A stretch of DNA of 64,000 nt from Candidatus Latescibacterota bacterium (lineage in GTDB: Bacteria > Latescibacterota > UBA2968 > GCA-2709665): contig CAXXJS010000028.1 in assembly GCA_963662665.2 (NCBI GenBank), positions 32,001 to 96,000 on the forward strand, in the 5' to 3' direction. The position numbers and the translations under genes are program-made. Shown here piece after piece: positions 30,126-62,888 of the stretch. How positions within the stretch are numbered: position 1 is the first letter of the stretch; each line of letters opens with the position of its first letter. The notes under the pieces were generated by a model. The model was given only the letters and a program-made list of their open reading frames with translations. It was not told where the DNA came from and did not search any database.

Positions 30126-30493
30126 CACGCTCTTCCGTCTGGCACTGAAGTACCGTGGGACGGGATTCGTACGCAGGCCACCGACACAGATATATACCCT
30201 TGAGACGATTCGTGGAAAAGCAGCCCCGCGGCGTTTGAGCGGCGCCGTTCTTTTTGGTCCTTTTTCTTTGGCGAAAAGGAAAAAGGACATGGAAATAGGG
30301 GAAGTTTGTGGGTGGAGTAGAATCTACGTCGCTTTGCATCCAATATCCCCCCGAAACGTAGTTCCAAAGGGAGACTGTCCGCTACCAATCGAGCCGGCAA
30401 TGGCCAACGCGTAACGCAAAAAGGGCATTCTCACAGTTGTGTTGCCGTCTGATGCGGCATTTTCCACGCGCCCACGTAATGGAGGCATCGCGG

Positions 30494-32335
30494 ATGAACT
30501 TCGGAGATATGATCGAGAAGGCACGCAGGGGCAGGTTCAGCCAGCAGGGCCTGGGCGAGAAAATGGGCGTCTGGGGCACATATATCGGACAGATAGAGAG
30601 CGGGAAGCGAATCCCTTCGGATGAGCGATGCCTCGACCTGGCGGCCATTCTTGATCTGGACCCCAGGGCCCTTCTGATTCAGGCTTACAGGCAGCGCGCC
30701 CGCACTAAAGAGGCCCGGCGCCTCTTTGGCCGGATGGCGAGGCTGCTCGTGGATCCGCCCGGGAACCGGAAGGCGGCGGACGGCATCTCCCGCGACGAAC
30801 AGGGGCCGGCCACAGCTGCGCCGGGAGAATCCCTGCCGGATCGGATCGGGCGCGCGGGTGAGCCGCCCTTCACCCGCGGCGCCTACTCTTCGATGTATCG
30901 CGGGCGCCTCTGGACCTTTCGCCAGTACTCGGGATTCTCCACCCCGGCCGAGACAAACGCCCGGTTTCGCGCACTGCTTGCCGGGGGCCAGACCGGCCTG
31001 AGTGTGGCCTTCGACCTGCCCACGCAGATGGGTTACGACTCGGACCATCCCGGTGCGGAGGGCGAGGTGGGCAGGGTGGGCGTGGCGATCGACGGCCTGT
31101 GGGACCTGGAAGCCCTGTTTGAGGGGATACACCTGGACCGCATCAGCACTTCCATGACAATCAACGCGACGGCGTGCATCCTGTTTGCGTTCTACACGGG
31201 CCTGGGAAAAAAACGCGGGCTGCCTTCAGCGATGCTTACCGGAACCGTCCAGAACGATATTCTCAAGGAATATGTTTCACGTGGAACATATATCTTTCCG
31301 ATTGCCGACTCGATGCGAATGGTCGTAGACCTGATGGGTTATTGTCTCAGGGAGTCGCCGAAGTGGAATCCGATCAGCGTCAGCGGGTACCATATGAGAG
31401 AAGCGGGCGCAACCGCCGCCCAGGAGTTGGGTTTCACGCTCGCCCACGCACTGTCGTATGCCGAGGCCGCCAGGGAGGCCGGGCTGGAACTGGAGGGGGT
31501 GCTTCCGAAATTCTCCTTCTTCTTTGGCGTCCATAACCACTTCCTTGAAGAAATCGCCAAATTCCGGGCGGCCAGGCGCCTCTGGAGCCGCCTCGTCGAG
31601 GAACGCCTGGGCATAACGGACCCGCGCTGCCGGCGGTTGCGATTTCACGCCCAGACCGCCGGCTCGACACTCACGGCGCAACAGCCGTTGAACAACTGCG
31701 CACGGACCACGCTCCAGGCGCTAGCCGCCGTGCTGGGCGGGACCCAATCCCTGCACGTCAACGCCTACGACGAAGCGCTCGGCCTGCCGTCGGATACGGG
31801 AGCGCAACTGGCTGTCCGTACCCAGCAGATCCTCGCCTGTGAAAGCGGTATTCCCAACACTGTCGATCCGATGGGTGGGTCGTTTGCGGTCGAACAAATG
31901 ACCGATGACCTGGAGGAGGAAGCCATTGCCGTTCTGGAGTCGGTCGACCGGGAGGGAGGGGCCGCGCCAGCCGCCGCAAACGGTTTCACGGCAGCCTGTA
32001 TCGCGGACTCCGCATACGATGCGCAAAAGAAGATTGAATCCGGTGAAACCGCCGTCGTGGGAGTGAACCGGTATCAGGAAGCTGCGGATCCGCCGGTTTC
32101 CGTGTTCCAGCCCGCACAGGAAACGGAGCATACGCAGAAAGACGCGCTGGCGCAGGCACGAAACCTGAGGGATTCGGATGCGACGAATGCTGCGCTGGAC
32201 GACGTCGCACGTCGGGCTCGGGGGAACGGCTCGATAACGGAGGCGGTCGTGGCCGCAGGGATGGCCGGCGCAACGGTAGGCGAGATTTCAGACAGGCTGC
32301 GCGCGGTTTTTGGATCCTACAGACCCGGAGGTTGA
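30494..32335 (+). CDS. XRE-type HTH domain fused to methylmalonyl-CoA mutase large (substrate-binding) subunit
   Basis: N-terminal FSQQGLGEKMGVWGTYIGQIESGKRIPS HTH; then PFTRG, WTFRQYSGF, GLSVAFDLPTQMGYDSD, QNDILKEY, SGYHMREAG, NAYDEAL; no DxHxxG B12 domain; GGAGG RBS 8 nt before ATG. Confidence 0.88.
   Translation: MNFGDMIEKARRGRFSQQGLGEKMGVWGTYIGQIESGKRIPSDERCLDLAAILDLDPRALLIQAYRQRARTKEARRLFGRMARLLVDPPGNRKAADGISRDEQGPATAAPGESLPDRIGRAGEPPFTRGAYSSMYRGRLWTFRQYSGFSTPAETNARFRALLAGGQTGLSVAFDLPTQMGYDSDHPGAEGEVGRVGVAIDGLWDLEALFEGIHLDRISTSMTINATACILFAFYTGLGKKRGLPSAMLTGTVQNDILKEYVSRGTYIFPIADSMRMVVDLMGYCLRESPKWNPISVSGYHMREAGATAAQELGFTLAHALSYAEAAREAGLELEGVLPKFSFFFGVHNHFLEEIAKFRAARRLWSRLVEERLGITDPRCRRLRFHAQTAGSTLTAQQPLNNCARTTLQALAAVLGGTQSLHVNAYDEALGLPSDTGAQLAVRTQQILACESGIPNTVDPMGGSFAVEQMTDDLEEEAIAVLESVDREGGAAPAAANGFTAACIADSAYDAQKKIESGETAVVGVNRYQEAADPPVSVFQPAQETEHTQKDALAQARNLRDSDATNAALDDVARRARGNGSITEAVVAAGMAGATVGEISDRLRAVFGSYRPGG
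31273..31288. promoter_or_regulatory. parS site inside the mutase CDS
   Basis: TGTTTCACGTGGAACA, identical to the site at 33440. Confidence 0.8.
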
Positions 32336-32736: not shown

Positions 32737-33384
32737 TCATGCGCGCAGGGCGGAAACCCTTACAAGAATCGTATTTCTGTGGTGCGACTCCGGGGTAATG
32801 GCCTCAATGGACACGACCGGGCCGTCGGGTCCGAATTCTTCTGCTTCCCGGCGGGCGCCGGGACCCTTCAGCGCAATTAACTCTCCCTTTGTTCTGAGGA
32901 ATCCTGACGACAGACGCCAGAGAATGGGCAAGGCGCCCACAGCGCGCGCCGTTACAACGTCGTAGCGTCCCCGATGCTCGTCACGCTCGCAAGCAGCCTC
33001 CGCCCGGTCGGTTAAGACCGACAGACCGTCCAGGTCGAGTTCTCCCGCCAGTTGGTTCAGGAAAAGGCCCTTCATTCGTACCGATTCGAGAAGCACAACA
33101 TTTATTTCCGGGCGGGCGATCTTGACCGGGACCCCCGGAAAACCCGCACCCGATCCCAGGTCCAGCAGGGAAATCGGCCCCGCGGGCAGGAATGGCGTCA
33201 CCCTCAAGCTTTCAATAATGTGGCGCTCCCTGATTTTGTCCCTGTCCCCCCGGGACACCAGTCGCACCCGCTCGGACCATGTCCTGAGCAATGTCTCATA
33301 CCGATAGAACCGCGCGGCCTGTTCCGCCGACAACGCTGTTGACAAAGCGTCCTCGGCCGCTGCCAGGAATTCTCGATCGTTCAC
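32737..33384 (-). CDS. rsmG: 16S rRNA m7G527 methyltransferase
   Basis: ERHIIES, LDLGSGAGFPG, DRAE, YDVVTARAV, LKG; GTG start at 33384 with GGAGGAG RBS. Confidence 0.93.
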   Translation of the reverse strand: MNDREFLAAAEDALSTALSAEQAARFYRYETLLRTWSERVRLVSRGDRDKIRERHIIESLRVTPFLPAGPISLLDLGSGAGFPGVPVKIARPEINVVLLESVRMKGLFLNQLAGELDLDGLSVLTDRAEAACERDEHRGRYDVVTARAVGALPILWRLSSGFLRTKGELIALKGPGARREAEEFGPDGPVVSIEAITPESHHRNTILVRVSALRA

Positions 33385-33439
33385 GGCTCCTCCACGCGCG
33401 CCCGAATCGCAACGCGCCGATCTCTCCCGCACAATCCGA

Positions 33440-33455
33440 TGTTTCACGTGGAACA
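33440..33455. promoter_or_regulatory. parS site
   Basis: TGTTTCACGTGGAACA within extended palindrome GATGTTTCACGTGGAACATC, upstream of rsmG near the origin. Confidence 0.88.
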
Positions 33456-33476
33456 TCAGCGGTCTGCTAAAAGCTT

Positions 33477-33720
33477 AAACCGAAACACTTGACGTCGGCG
33501 CAATTACGTTGAAAATCGCCAAGGGCGCGGACCTCTCCCCCCGGACCCCTCTCCCAGGGGAGCGGGGAGGGTTAGCGATACGGCCTGACGATATCCGTTT
33601 GCGATGGCCGCGCCGGTATATCGGCAACGTCGGCGCGGGAGCCCTCCCGGAGGCAGGCGGAGAAGACGGAAACCCCTTCAAGAAGTGACAGTTTCCCCTT
33701 CACCTGCGAAGGAGGAAAGG
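33477..33720. repeat. Modular intergenic repeat family R2, copy 3
   Basis: First ~110 bp align to 23227-23340; 33530-33700 aligns to 29670-29845. Confidence 0.8.
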
Positions 33721-33721
33721 T

Positions 33722-34676
33722 TAGCCTCAATGTGAAAAAAACAGCAACTCGGCAACGCGACGAAAACCCCTGAAACGGGCCGTAACGGTCGTCAAAAAGG
33801 ACGTTTTTTCAGTTCACGTCCAGTCACCGGGTGTATCTTGGTAATCAGAAGTTAAATCGCCTTTATCTACTTGCATATATTCGGTTTTACTTCCCCGAAG
33901 AAGTAGAGTCGAGATGTGGCGCGGTGGTTTAGGAGTGGCCTGTCTGTTCCCGCCCCTTTCGTCTGGCGGTGCCTCAATAGCCCCTCCGTGCTCCGTTTCC
34001 ACATCCCGCTCGTCGAACCGGACGTGCGGAGTTACCGCATCCGGCTCTCCGACGGACATCGCCTTCAGGTACACACTGCCCGATCTGCCCGGACAGCTTC
34101 ACCTGAAACCTTAGCTTGATCTGGAGTCGCCTCGTCTTATTCTGGAGGAGGTTATAGGCTTGCGCCACTCTCCCGACAGTTGTCCCCTTCACAAGCACAT
34201 CCGAAGTCAGGCCCCTTTCCTCCGCCGGCGTTACCCGGCATCACAGGTACTACGAGCCTGTCCGCCACCCCATACGGCCCGGCCTGGCCCTCACGGGCTT
34301 CCGGTTGGTGGCTCTCCACCACCGCTGGGGCTTCCCGTGTTGCGTCGGATCTCCTTGTATGCGTGCCTCCGCCATTACCCCGGCGGGACCGTTGGGTGCT
34401 CTCGTTGCCTGCTTCCCCAACGACGGCGGCCTTCCCCGTTCGCAAGCCGGGTCGGCTCCCGCATTACCCTTTTCGAGGCCTGCTCAGCGTTTACTCACGT
34501 TTCAGCCCACATACTCGCCGAGTCGCCTGGCGACCCTCTACACCGGAGGCTTCGGAGATGTCGTTACCTACGTCTCCGCTCCGATTGCTTCCGACTGTGG
34601 CAACATCTGTCGGGTGGGACTCTCACCCACTGAAGTTCCGCGCCTTTTCACGGCGCACTTGCGAATCAAGGTTAGG
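33722..34676. repeat. Dispersed ~200-bp repeat family R1, copy A, split by the group II intron (33722-33902 + 34659-34676)
   Basis: Removing the intron gives ...CCCCGAAGAA|TTGCGAATCAAGGTTAGG, gaplessly matching CCCTGAAAAA|TGACCAATCAAAGTCAGG (copy B) and CCCCGAAAAA|TGACGAATCAAAGTTAGA (copy C). Confidence 0.85.
33903..34658 (-). mobile_element. ORF-less (RT-deleted) group II intron, 756 nt, resembling bacterial class E
   Basis: 5' GTGCGCCGTGAAAAGGCGCG; domain V GAGCCGGATGCGGTAACTCCGCACGTCCGGTTC (34047-34015); domain VI ending CTCGACTCTAC; EBS1 TTGCGAA (34445-34439) pairs 7/7 with 5' exon TTCGCAA; only ~110 nt of IEP remnant. Confidence 0.92.
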
Positions 34677-34735
34677 TGTCGACCCATCGCGCATCTCACC
34701 ATTCGCGCGACCGCAGCACAACCGATCATCCGTTT

Positions 34736-36091
34736 TTACTTGCCGATACAAAACGTACTGAAAATCCGGTCCAAAATCTCCTCCGACGTGGTTTCGCCGA
34801 CTATTTCAGCCAGCGCGTCGGCCGCTTCACGCAAATCCACCGCTACCACTTCCCGTGGAAGACCGTCGTCCAGCGCCGCCGTTGCACGGCCAAGGGCTTC
34901 TCCCGCCCGCCGCAGCGCCTGGACGTGGCGGGCGTGCGTTACCGCGCCGGGATCGGGATCGGAGGCCTCGATTACACGCTCGCGGATGAGCTTCCTGAGA
35001 CAGTCGAGCCCATCCCCCGAAAGGGCGGAGACGTTGAGACCCGCGAACTCGTGATCGCCGCGCCATTCGGCATGAAGGCCGAGATCCCTCTTGTTCATCA
35101 CGAGAAGCACGTTTTCGGGATCCAGGCCCGCAACGATGTCTTTCAACCCCGCGCCAACGGGGACGGACGCATCCACGATCAACAGCACAAGCGCGGCCCG
35201 GGCAATCGCAACCCGCGACCGCCGGGCGCCTTCCCGTTCAATGGCGTCTCGCGGCTCTGCGATACCCGCCGTATCGACCAGCGTCACGCAAATTCCGTCC
35301 AGGGTGATGGACTCCTCAATCGTATCCCGCGTGGTTCCGGACACCGGCGACACGATCGCCCGATCCTCTTCCAGCAGTCGGTTGAGCAGGCTGGACTTGC
35401 CGGCGTTCGGGGGTCCCGCCAGCGCAACGAGGGCGCCCTCGCGTATGACTTTGCCATGCCGATACGAGGCGATCAGGCGCTCGATTTCTTCCCCCGCCCG
35501 TGCGACCGATGGACGCACCGCCTCCTGTTCGACGCCCGCGTCTTCGTAGAAATCCAATCCTGCCTCAAGCAGCGTCAACGAATCCCGGACGGCTTCCGCC
35601 AGATCCTCGAACCTCGACCTCAAGCCACCGCGCAACCGGAAGTATGCGGACCGAAGACCCCGGTCCGCCCGGGCGGTGATCATATCGGCAATCGCCTCGG
35701 CCTGGGTGAGATCGATCCGGCCACTGAGGAACGCCCGCCTGGTGAATTCGCCGGGTTCAGCTGGCCGTGCGCCCGCCGATACAAGGGCCTCCATTGCCCG
35801 CTGCAAAAGGAGAGGGCCCCCGTGGCAGTTGAATTCAACCGTATCTTCCCCCGTAAACGAACGGGAAGCCCGCATCACGGAGACAAGGACCTCGTCCAGG
35901 TCCCGGTCTCCGACAACAAGCCTGCCGTACGTCAGACGGCGGTCCTCAATATGGTTCAGATCGCGTGACCCACAAAAAAAACCGGAGGCGATTTCTACCG
36001 CCTCCGGACCCGTGAGCCGCACGATGCCTATCGCTGCCTCGCCGGAACCGGTGGCGATTGCGACAATGGTATCGCGATCCGAAGGTCTCAT
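34736..36091 (-). CDS. mnmE: tRNA modification GTPase MnmE (TrmE)
   Basis: DTIVAIAT, SFTGEDTVEFNCHGG, GEFTRRAF, GPPNAGKSS, GTTRD, DTAG, C-terminal FCIGK. Confidence 0.97.
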   Translation of the reverse strand: MRPSDRDTIVAIATGSGEAAIGIVRLTGPEAVEIASGFFCGSRDLNHIEDRRLTYGRLVVGDRDLDEVLVSVMRASRSFTGEDTVEFNCHGGPLLLQRAMEALVSAGARPAEPGEFTRRAFLSGRIDLTQAEAIADMITARADRGLRSAYFRLRGGLRSRFEDLAEAVRDSLTLLEAGLDFYEDAGVEQEAVRPSVARAGEEIERLIASYRHGKVIREGALVALAGPPNAGKSSLLNRLLEEDRAIVSPVSGTTRDTIEESITLDGICVTLVDTAGIAEPRDAIEREGARRSRVAIARAALVLLIVDASVPVGAGLKDIVAGLDPENVLLVMNKRDLGLHAEWRGDHEFAGLNVSALSGDGLDCLRKLIRERVIEASDPDPGAVTHARHVQALRRAGEALGRATAALDDGLPREVVAVDLREAADALAEIVGETTSEEILDRIFSTFCIGK

Positions 36092-40574: not shown

Positions 40575-40793
40575 ATTTTCAAATAGCTTCTCAATTGCGG
40601 CGAGAACCCTGATAGTTTACCTGATGCGCCGCGACAGTATAACGACCGATTTCCGTCCTGAATCGGTTTTTTCTGTTTATGTCCGTTCACGTCCAGTGAC
40701 CTGAAGTATCCTGGAAATCCGCCGTCAAATCGCCTTTACTCACTTGCGCGTATTCGACTTAGCGTCCCTGAAAAATGACCAATCAAAGTCAGG
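40575..40793. repeat. Repeat family R1, copy B (intron-free; equivalent site 40775/40776)
   Basis: GTTCACGTCCAGTGACCTGAAGTATCCTGGAAA...AATCGCCTTT...ACTTG...CCCTGAAAAATGACCAATCAAAGTCAGG; left boundary approximate. Confidence 0.85.
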
Positions 40794-50519: not shown

Positions 50520-50598
50520 GGGGTAGTAGCTCAGTATTGGTTAGAGTGCAGGCCTGTCACGCCTGAGGTCGCGGGTTCGAGCCCCGTCTACCCCGCCA
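50520..50598 (+). tRNA. tRNA-Asp (GTC)
   Basis: Acceptor GGGGTAG/CTACCCC, anticodon arm CAGGC-CTGTCAC-GCCTG, T-arm GCGGG-TTCGAGC-CCCGT, G discriminator, encoded CCA. Confidence 0.96.
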
Positions 50599-62608: not shown

Positions 62609-62817
62609 ATTTTCGCATATTACCTCAATTCGATAAATACAGCAACGCGGCGCCGCGACAAGACCTTCCGAAATGGGCCGAAAAGGTCGTTTAAATGGAC
62701 ATTTTATCCGTTCACGTCCAGTGATCTGAAGTATCCTGGAAAACCGAAGTCGAATCGCTTTTGTTAACTTGAATATGTCCGATTCAACGTCCCCGAAAAA
62801 TGACGAATCAAAGTTAG
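62609..62817. repeat. Repeat family R1, copy C (intron-free; equivalent site 62800/62801)
   Basis: Aligns along its length with 33722-33902+34659-34676 (CCTCAAT..ACAGCAAC..CGCGAC..GGGCCG..GGTCGT..GTTCACGTCCAGT..AATCGC..GAATCAA.GTTAG). Confidence 0.85.
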
Positions 62818-62888
62818 AGATGGCGGTGAATATCCGCGTCCGCCATTGAAGAATCTTTATTGGAAACCACCAGGTCAGGTGAGCAAGT

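Follow-up and report, generated by a model that had tools for sequence, protein, structure and literature searches.

A group II intron without an open reading frame in a Candidatus Latescibacterota genome and its probable spread by retrohoming into miniature inverted-repeat elements

The stretch of DNA analysed here, referred to as the window, comprises 64,000 nucleotides (positions 32,001 to 96,000 of contig CAXXJS010000028.1, assembly GCA_963662665.2) from a Candidatus Latescibacterota bacterium. In the spacer between mnmE and rsmG it contains a group II intron of 756 nt without an open reading frame (ORF), which lies on the minus strand (33903..34658, GTGCG...CTCTAC) and interrupts a copy of a dispersed repeat. 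Both neighbouring genes are on the same strand as the intron, mnmE upstream (34736..36091; TIGR00450, 327.7 bits vs a cut-off of 252.6) and rsmG downstream (32737..33456; TIGR00138, 124.4 bits vs a cut-off of 99.5); yidC is located further upstream of mnmE, again on this strand. In 10 of the 14 other genomes of the genus, mnmE is followed by rsmG with neither the repeat nor an intron between them, and this empty spacer appears to be the ancestral state of the locus. One relative, G007, carries another ORF-less intron in the mnmE–rsmG spacer (contig C1, approximately 370 nt 3′ of mnmE). Its exon-binding site 1 (EBS1) and its flanking repeat both differ from those described here, and it therefore represents an independent insertion.

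The 5′ part of domain I (34495..34632, minus strand) matched the Rfam model group-II-D1D4-4 (RF02003) over model positions 1-138 of 138, with 89.7 bits vs a gathering score of 49 (E = 2e-18). The Intron_gpII model for domains V and VI (RF00029) gave 35.7 bits over 33903-34049, which is below its gathering score of 40, and in a genome-wide search the intron copies scored 30-30.9 bits, likewise under this threshold. The RF00029 alignment is flawless in the domain V half and contains about 90 inserted nucleotides in domain VI. Domain V (GAGCCGGAUGCGG-UAAC-UCCGCACGUCCGGUUC; 34015..34047, minus strand), located by the Rfam alignment and a consensus fold, shows the two usual helices with a 2-nt bulge, and its 13 predicted pairs are retained throughout the 17 related copies except for two breaks, each in a single copy. 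Domain VI (33903..34011, minus strand), located by the same means, has a long distal extension; the distal hairpin is absent from 5 of 17 relatives. In the consensus fold of related copies, pair 883:987 of this domain is altered on both sides in three sequences, and the bulged branch-site A (33909; intron nt 750), located 7 nt from the 3′ end, remains unpaired, flanked by the paired columns 987 and 989. Domain IV (34053..34217, minus strand; intron nt ~442-606, ~165 nt), delimited by local alignment to a full-length copy of the intron, holds no ORF. No reverse transcriptase (RT) ORF was found inside the 756-nt intron and none of its ORFs matches RVT_1 or GIIM. The boundaries GTGCG...AC are present in 11 of 11 copies in the genome and conform to the group II ends 5′ GUGYG and 3′ AY. 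The element is a complete ribozyme whose domain IV is devoid of the RT gene, i.e. an ORF-less group II intron.

EBS1 (TTGCGAA, intron nt 214-220; 34439..34445, minus strand) is displayed in a 9-nt loop closed by CCCG/CGGG and pairs at 7 of 7 positions with the intron-binding site IBS1 of the 5′ exon, TTCGCAA. When 92 related copies from this and other genomes were compared, the 62 distinct EBS1/IBS1 combinations showed a mean of 5.79 paired positions out of 7, compared with 3.01 in cross-lineage controls; at least six pairs were formed in 38 of 62 combinations vs 4.1% of the controls. EBS3 is the A at intron nt 284 (34375, minus strand), which pairs with T, the first base of the 3′ exon. In 16 of 17 related ORF-less copies, the base in this alignment column (453) is the complement of exon position +1, the pair being A-T, T-A or C-G. 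Reading of the +1 exon base by a separate EBS3 in domain I, and not by the base beside EBS1, is the defining feature of group IIB introns. The covariation of EBS3 with position +1 thus suggests an IIB-like architecture. The Rfam D1D4 families are not named by intron class, and tblastn against plasmids returned only 'ltrA' annotations at 65% identity or less. The probable EBS2, AGGGT (intron nt 189-193; 34466..34470, minus strand), was assigned by eye; it pairs with IBS2 ACCTT at exon positions -14 to -10 with one G-U pair, and its loop is among the few variable stretches of the related copies.

The repeat that hosts the intron is about 190 bp long. Its ends, CCTTGATTCG... and ...CGAATTGGGG, are complementary at 7 of 10 positions by manual count. 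An nhmmer profile built from the rejoined flanks matched 78 places in the genome, namely nine 3′ halves adjoining introns, 64 empty copies with an intact 5′ end and five copies without a 5′ end. An identical 4-mer, mostly CTAA or TTAA, was found at both ends of 42 out of 66 copies, whereas shuffling of the pairs gave 14.6 on average and 24 at most. The repeat is small, contains no ORF and is present in many copies; its terminal inverted repeats are imperfect, and it is flanked by a 4-bp duplication of the target. In these respects it behaves as a miniature inverted-repeat transposable element (MITE). Its fold is no more stable than those of shuffled sequences (z = -0.55); since duplications are present and the fold equals the shuffles, we regard the repeat as a transposon relic with a 4-bp target duplication and not as a structure of the repetitive extragenic palindrome type.

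At the mnmE–rsmG locus the 5′ exon (CCTTGATTCGCAA; 34659..34671, minus strand) corresponds, by alignment of copies, to the 13 outermost nucleotides in the left terminal inverted repeat of the MITE and holds IBS1 and most of IBS2. The 3′ exon (33725..33902, minus strand; profile match C28:65913-65702) consists of the remaining 178 nt. The interrupted MITE is bordered by the same 4-mer at both ends, CTAA at 34672..34675 on the left and CTAA at 33721..33724 on the right (minus strand). Neither intron nor repeat is a chance finding, because the intron recurs eight times in the genome at 99.7% identity or more and the repeat profile finds 78 places. A preliminary description of this DNA, made from the letters alone, had assigned to 33722-34676 a 756-nt group II ribozyme on the minus strand with a GTGCG start, an intact domain V, an AC end and no RT, whose EBS1 (TTGCGAA, 34445-34439) pairs 7/7 with TTCGCAA, and had listed two empty copies of the repeat in the window. 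Coordinates and Rfam matches agree with this assignment: the proposed Rfam scan placed the D1D4 model above and Intron_gpII below the gathering score with a clean domain V part, the EBS1 pairing holds, and the span equals repeat, intron and flanking 4-bp duplications within one base. The two empty copies are real as well. One lies at 62620..62818 (minus strand) and reads TTCGTCA at the IBS1 position; the other, at 40678..40793 (minus strand), is more diverged, matches the profile over the 5′ 116 nt only and reads TTGGTCA.

Blastn searches of the whole genome, a 66-contig draft of 4.86 Mb with 5.4% contamination, revealed eight copies of the 756-nt intron at 99.7% identity or more and three copies of a 1975-nt form (C61:80849-82823, C24:8271-10245 and C16:124183-126157) whose ribozyme parts are 95-97% identical to the short intron. 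The domain V model found exactly these 11 places at E ≤ 0.01 and no others in the genome. The 1975-nt form encodes a protein of 441 amino acids (aa), the ORF being open in all three copies. It matches RVT_1 and GIIM only, scores 354 bits with TIGR04416 (cut-off 300) and contains a YADD motif; no endonuclease domain was found in this RT/maturase. Matches to RVT_1 and GIIM in the whole genome were confined to the three full-length copies, and the 441-aa RT/maturase is the likely helper that would serve the ORF-less copies in trans. Further fragments resembling the 5′ part of the intron were detected at C5:13735-13949 (78%, 215 nt), C10:148815-148959 (70%, 146 nt) and C40:161333-161355 (23 nt, exact); they may be remnants or belong to other intron families. 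With regard to a phage vector for helper or intron, the IMG/VR database gave distant RTs only (identities of 61%, 32% and 27%), and a 28-nt domain IV signature had no match there. A 21-nt domain IV signature matched two metagenome contigs, which are too few for any inference.

All eight short copies and the long copy on C61 are inserted at the same point, between ...YTAA-CCTTGATTCGCAA and TTCTTCGG..., which is 13 nt inside the left inverted repeat of the MITE. The long copy on C24 is inserted in the opposite strand of a MITE copy with a nearly palindromic left end, which offers the same word on that strand (by eye). Altogether, 8 of 8 ORF-less and 2 of 3 full-length introns reside in the MITE. 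That every ORF-less copy interrupts one repeat family at one position could mean that one MITE was invaded once and that the composite of MITE and intron was then multiplied by DNA transposition, with the intron as an immobile passenger; the target-site duplications of the MITE indicate that the repeat did transpose. The divergence of the two partners, however, makes such a history hardly credible. Pairwise comparison of the short introns revealed 0-2 differences in 756 nt (19 in total for the 28 pairs, 0.09% by our own arithmetic), whereas the adjoining MITE halves have diverged by 9.5% (539 of 5699 positions), and the introns must therefore be much younger than the MITE copies that host them. 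In a tree of 66 copies, the occupied MITEs form no clade but are interspersed with empty ones, and each intron copy has a unique 5′ flank and its own diverged MITE half on the 3′ side. Furthermore, the insertion parts the outer 13 nt from the rest of the inverted repeat, which should hinder transposition of a composite. This pattern fits recent independent retrohoming rather than co-transposition.

Occupied sites carry the IBS1 word TTCGCAA (six copies) or TTCGCTA (two copies). Among the 64 empty sites, TTCGTAA is found at 12, TTCGCAA at 11, TTCGAAA at six and TTCGTCA at six, with 22 rarer words at the remaining 29. A perfect IBS1 word was associated with occupancy (Fisher's test, p = 0.0016), and more strongly when TTCGCTA was counted as perfect (p = 1e-5). 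A matching IBS1 is nearly required for occupancy and is not sufficient, and the invasion looks recent and incomplete. The preliminary description had envisaged a non-autonomous mini-intron which uses the repeat family as a landing pad, with repeat polymorphism deciding occupancy, and had named the location of all other copies in unrelated sequence as evidence to the contrary. The element is indeed non-autonomous: it lacks an ORF, and an RT is encoded only in the three full-length relatives that the suggested BLASTN search turned up in the same genome. With 8 of 8 ORF-less and two full-length copies in one repeat, the landing pad is borne out, too. Repeat polymorphism, as far as IBS1 is concerned, correlates with occupancy but is not its sole determinant, because 11 of the 17 perfect sites are empty. 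No replication-strand bias was apparent, GC skew being negative at four and positive at four of the eight copies, with perfect empty sites mixed too. In a crude ORF scan there was no clear orientation rule with respect to neighbouring ORFs, five of eight ORF-less copies being located behind a same-strand ORF; the three full-length copies are all co-oriented with both neighbours.

Contigs of sequencing run X1 (probably DNA) and of three RNA libraries (X18-X20) were aligned to window positions 33000-35400. The X1 short-read contigs reproduced the two unique flanks without a difference, at depths of 6.8 and 11.8. Depth rose to 83-98 in the intron body and to approximately 1100 in the MITE. These values fit a multicopy intron in a high-copy repeat, although depth is not a copy number. 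A promoter and terminator scan of 33400-34800 yielded one weak promoter-like site on the plus strand and no terminator-like site.

The short and the long form of the intron align throughout save domain IV. Over its first ~70 nt, domain IV of the short form shares ~70% identity with the ribosome-binding site and first codons of the long form, with the ATG lost, and this segment is a diverged remnant of the start region of the RT gene. The same domain IV was found in ORF-less copies of G001, G003, G005, G006, G007, G009, G011 and G016, which are 75-97% identical to the intron over all or most of its 756 nt. As one domain IV is common to at least eight related genomes, deletion of the ORF happened once and is older than these species. 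Among 17 copies from nine genomes, domain IV is as conserved as the core, and its pairs 707:765 (four sequences) and 800:810 (two sequences) are altered on both sides. Matches to the intron occur in 13 of the 14 other genomes of the genus and in none of 19 genomes of the sister family. Target preference varies within the lineage. G001 has three sets of near-identical short introns with 0-2 differences within each set; they represent two target types, which differ in EBS1 and in the repeated sequence that serves as target. In G009, two copies occupy the same MITE at the same position with an EBS1, TGACGA, that matches TTCGTCA, and in G006 one copy is located at the mirror position, in the right end of the MITE.

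Taken together, we consider it likely that this ORF-less group II intron of IIB-like architecture is mobilized in trans by the resident RT and has entered MITEs by recent retrohoming, the ORF-less form being of single origin. The intron RNA would be transcribed by read-through, in the case of the mnmE–rsmG copy from mnmE. It would then be spliced and bound by the endonuclease-less 441-aa RT/maturase supplied in trans by the full-length copies. Reverse splicing into MITE copies matching ACCTT-N2-TTCGCAA|T, followed by copying into DNA, would complete retrohoming. With about one in three perfect targets filled, the burst would be recent and still incomplete. Each insertion splits the inverted repeat and thereby probably immobilizes that MITE copy. 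The ORF-less form would have arisen once, before the species of the genus split, and its EBS loops would since have been altered to follow different repeats. We infer splicing, mobility, the intron class, the assignment of EBS2 and the effect on MITE transposition from sequence.

Several observations weigh against this interpretation. Eleven of the 17 perfect targets are empty despite the usual IBS2 and a T at position +1, and the 12 sites with a single G-U pair (TTCGTAA) are all empty. In addition, all three full-length copies as assembled mismatch their own 5′ exon at positions -1 and -2: the EBS1 loop of the C61 and C24 copies reads TTTTGGA beside the exon TTCGATT, and that of the C16 copy AATCGAA beside TTCGGAA. 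Exchanged between the loci, these loops would pair at 7 of 7 positions, TTTTGGA with three G-U pairs. Mis-assembly or mis-polishing in the 1975-nt repeat is the simplest reading, with gene conversion as an alternative, and the mismatch casts doubt on the fidelity of the assembly inside these repeats. Carried further, this doubt would make the near-identity and the placement of the copies artefacts that arose when this metagenome-derived genome was assembled or polished. The seemingly exchanged loops, the contamination of 5.4% in a draft of 66 contigs and the X1 short-read contigs, which break at repeat borders, point in this direction. On the other hand, every copy has a unique 5′ sequence and its own diverged 3′ MITE half, the X1 depth of the intron body is about 10-fold that of the flanks, and closed single-contig relatives show multiple near-identical copies, too. 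An assembly artefact is therefore very improbable.

The helper function gives rise to further reservations. What remains of the helper-binding region in domain IV shares only ~70% identity with the full-length copies, and it is thus uncertain whether the resident RT recognizes the short form. The closed genome of G009 has six ORF-less copies, and no group II RT was found in it, which means that the lineage can sit in a helper-free genome. Finally, no exon joint across 33902/34659 was present in contigs of X1 or X18-X20. The X18-X20 contigs are 90-99% alike (mostly 90-95%), cover the intron body only and leave the flanks uncovered; they may stem from related introns or from library DNA and hence give no verdict on splicing. 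The weakly conserved start of domain IV, the eleven empty perfect targets, the retention of six copies in G009 and the missing spliced junction would all be compatible with stranded relics or splicing-only elements, left by a past burst of mobility and no longer served by the present RT. We regard this as improbable, given that the near-identity of the eight copies implies very recent last insertions, the catalytic parts are without exception intact and have been conserved in 17 related copies, and the three RT genes are open and retain the YADD motif.

The number of helper genes differs widely among the relatives that carry ORF-less copies. Ten were counted in G001 and at least 12 in G007, and none was found in the draft genomes G005 and G006. 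In G009, a single contig with 99% completeness, neither query found a group II RT; the sole RT-like hit there (TIGR04416, E ≤ 1e-5) is a 522-aa Drt8 defence RT (L127:494-2062, minus strand; PADLOC, 530.7 bits). Nevertheless, six short introns are present in G009, in two near-identical groups of three, with 0-2 differences in one group and 3-6 in the other. Comparison of G006 with the genome studied here revealed 97% identity for the intron and 77% for mnmE, whereas G011, the closest host by mnmE (87%), has the most distant intron copy (81%). Intron identity thus does not seem to follow host identity, and transfer between species is a lead from one gene, mnmE, and not a result. It is conceivable, but on balance unlikely, that the ORF-less introns form a long-lived retroelement lineage resembling short interspersed nuclear elements, which moves between species and persists, perhaps even multiplies, in genomes without a group II RT.

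The choice of target agrees with a habit seen in a wider group of introns. Relatives of the RT are found in many phyla at 60-72% identity, and at 86-90% in records titled Candidatus Latescibacterota. The motif YTAR is located at positions -17 to -14 in 36 of 93 distinct 5′-exon ends, compared with 0-5 at any other offset, and it is present there in 21 of 47 loci from other phyla. Of three downstream ORFs compared with Pfam, two match the transposase family PF13701 and one DUF4096 of IS4/5 elements. The introns of this clade thus appear to home often just inside the ends of transposons with YTAR duplications. The MITE site agrees with this habit, as it lies 13 nt inside a YTAA-flanked end. In relative G013, a full-length intron is inserted 13 nt inside an end of the type found in a resident insertion sequence (IS) of the genome described here. 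This IS of ~1.7 kb has 15 near-identical copies (e.g. C28:185437-186753, outside the window), none of which carries the intron in this genome, and its transposase shares 83-84% identity with a PF13701-matching ORF of a relative. Its 4-bp NTAR duplications are similar in kind to those of the MITE, but its ends (TCTGAATAATTCA...) differ, and for this reason no parent IS was assigned to the MITE. It is likewise conceivable, though on balance unlikely, that the whole intron clade is specialized on the outermost 12-13 nt of YTAR-flanked IS and MITE ends. If so, a retroelement parasitizes DNA transposons and disables them by splitting the repeats bound by their transposases.

The closest analogues appear to be the TeI3 introns of Thermosynechococcus elongatus and RmInt1 of Sinorhizobium meliloti. 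For TeI3/TeI4, one ORF deletion, families distinguished by EBS and helper RTs acting in trans have been described (Mohr, Ghanem and Lambowitz 2010; PMC2882425). As in TeI3, a single ancestral deletion of the domain IV ORF was followed by proliferation of the ORF-less form, which outnumbers the ORF-containing form; families are split by EBS sequence, and RTs of related introns mobilize them in trans, which in our case would be the role of the 441-aa protein (PMC2882425). Unlike the TeI4 proteins, which have an endonuclease domain, the RT described here has none (PMC2882425). The targets here are MITE ends, the host phylum differs, and the present system is known from sequence alone. Moreover, the ORF-less lineage spans several species, including genomes in which no group II RT was found. 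RmInt1 has an endonuclease-less RT/maturase and a homing site in a multicopy insertion sequence. Both features recur here, as does the divergence of related introns in target specificity. In contrast, RmInt1 carries its own RT, and no replication-strand bias was seen here.

Other known systems share single traits with the introns described here. According to a 2015 review by Zimmerly and Semper (PMC4424553), ORF-less introns are rare in bacteria, and C.te.I1 of Clostridium tetani is one that occurs in a genome lacking a related RT. In this respect it resembles the introns of G009, but C.te.I1 is a single-copy intron within a gene and undergoes alternative splicing, whereas the copies here are numerous and inserted in repeats (PMC4424553). 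Group IIC introns, which insert after terminators and at attC sites, likewise target a recurrent non-coding DNA motif and not a gene; they read a stem-loop and a short IBS1, in contrast to the long EBS1, EBS2 and EBS3 pairings seen here (PMC4424553). IStrons, group I introns fused to an IS, also combine a ribozyme with a DNA transposon at one place. However, an IStron is a single chimera moved by the transposase, whereas we are dealing with two nested parasites, of which the intron would move itself. In the titles and abstract openings searched, we found no description of a group II intron in a MITE or inverted repeat, or in Latescibacteria. Three features set the introns apart from these precedents, namely the use of a MITE as landing pad, the age of the ORF-less lineage together with its wide distribution, and its occurrence in a genome in which no helper was found.

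The introns would thus constitute a second, independent system of ORF-less intron proliferation beside the well-studied one of Thermosynechococcus (PMC2882425), in an uncultured lineage, with one non-autonomous parasite nested in another. They offer a natural series of retargeted EBS1, EBS2 and EBS3 loops and include relatives that keep the intron without a detectable helper. ORF-less introns of this kind are missed by RT-based surveys. The compact 756-nt ribozyme and the small endonuclease-less RT are a candidate pair for studying the rules of mobilization in trans.

Further repeats were noticed in and around the introns of the relatives. Short GC-rich palindromes (GCCTGCCTG...CAGGCAGGC, ~27-80 nt) are inserted at several intron places in G009, G011 and G016 (loci L032, L035-L037, L044 and L046); they seem to form a third repeat family, of very small size, within the intron. 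At a contig end of G003 (C52, locus L045), an ORF-less copy directly follows the last 25 nt of another intron copy, in a tandem or nested arrangement. Variants of the intron in G001, G009 and Latescibacterota-titled records have other repeated targets (L019-L026, L032, L034, L047-L050 and L027-L031). One of these targets is rich in CATCCTGT heptamers and ends in ...ATCCATG; another ends in ...AAGCTGACA, followed by ACTGCTCTTCCTGACCACTGG. Both recur at many loci.

Elsewhere in the window, a 632-aa ORF (30437-32335, plus strand) resembles a helix-turn-helix regulator in its N-terminus and a methylmalonyl-CoA mutase subunit in the remainder, as judged by eye, and a tRNA gene is located at 50520-50595 (plus strand; Rfam RF00005, 65.7 bits).

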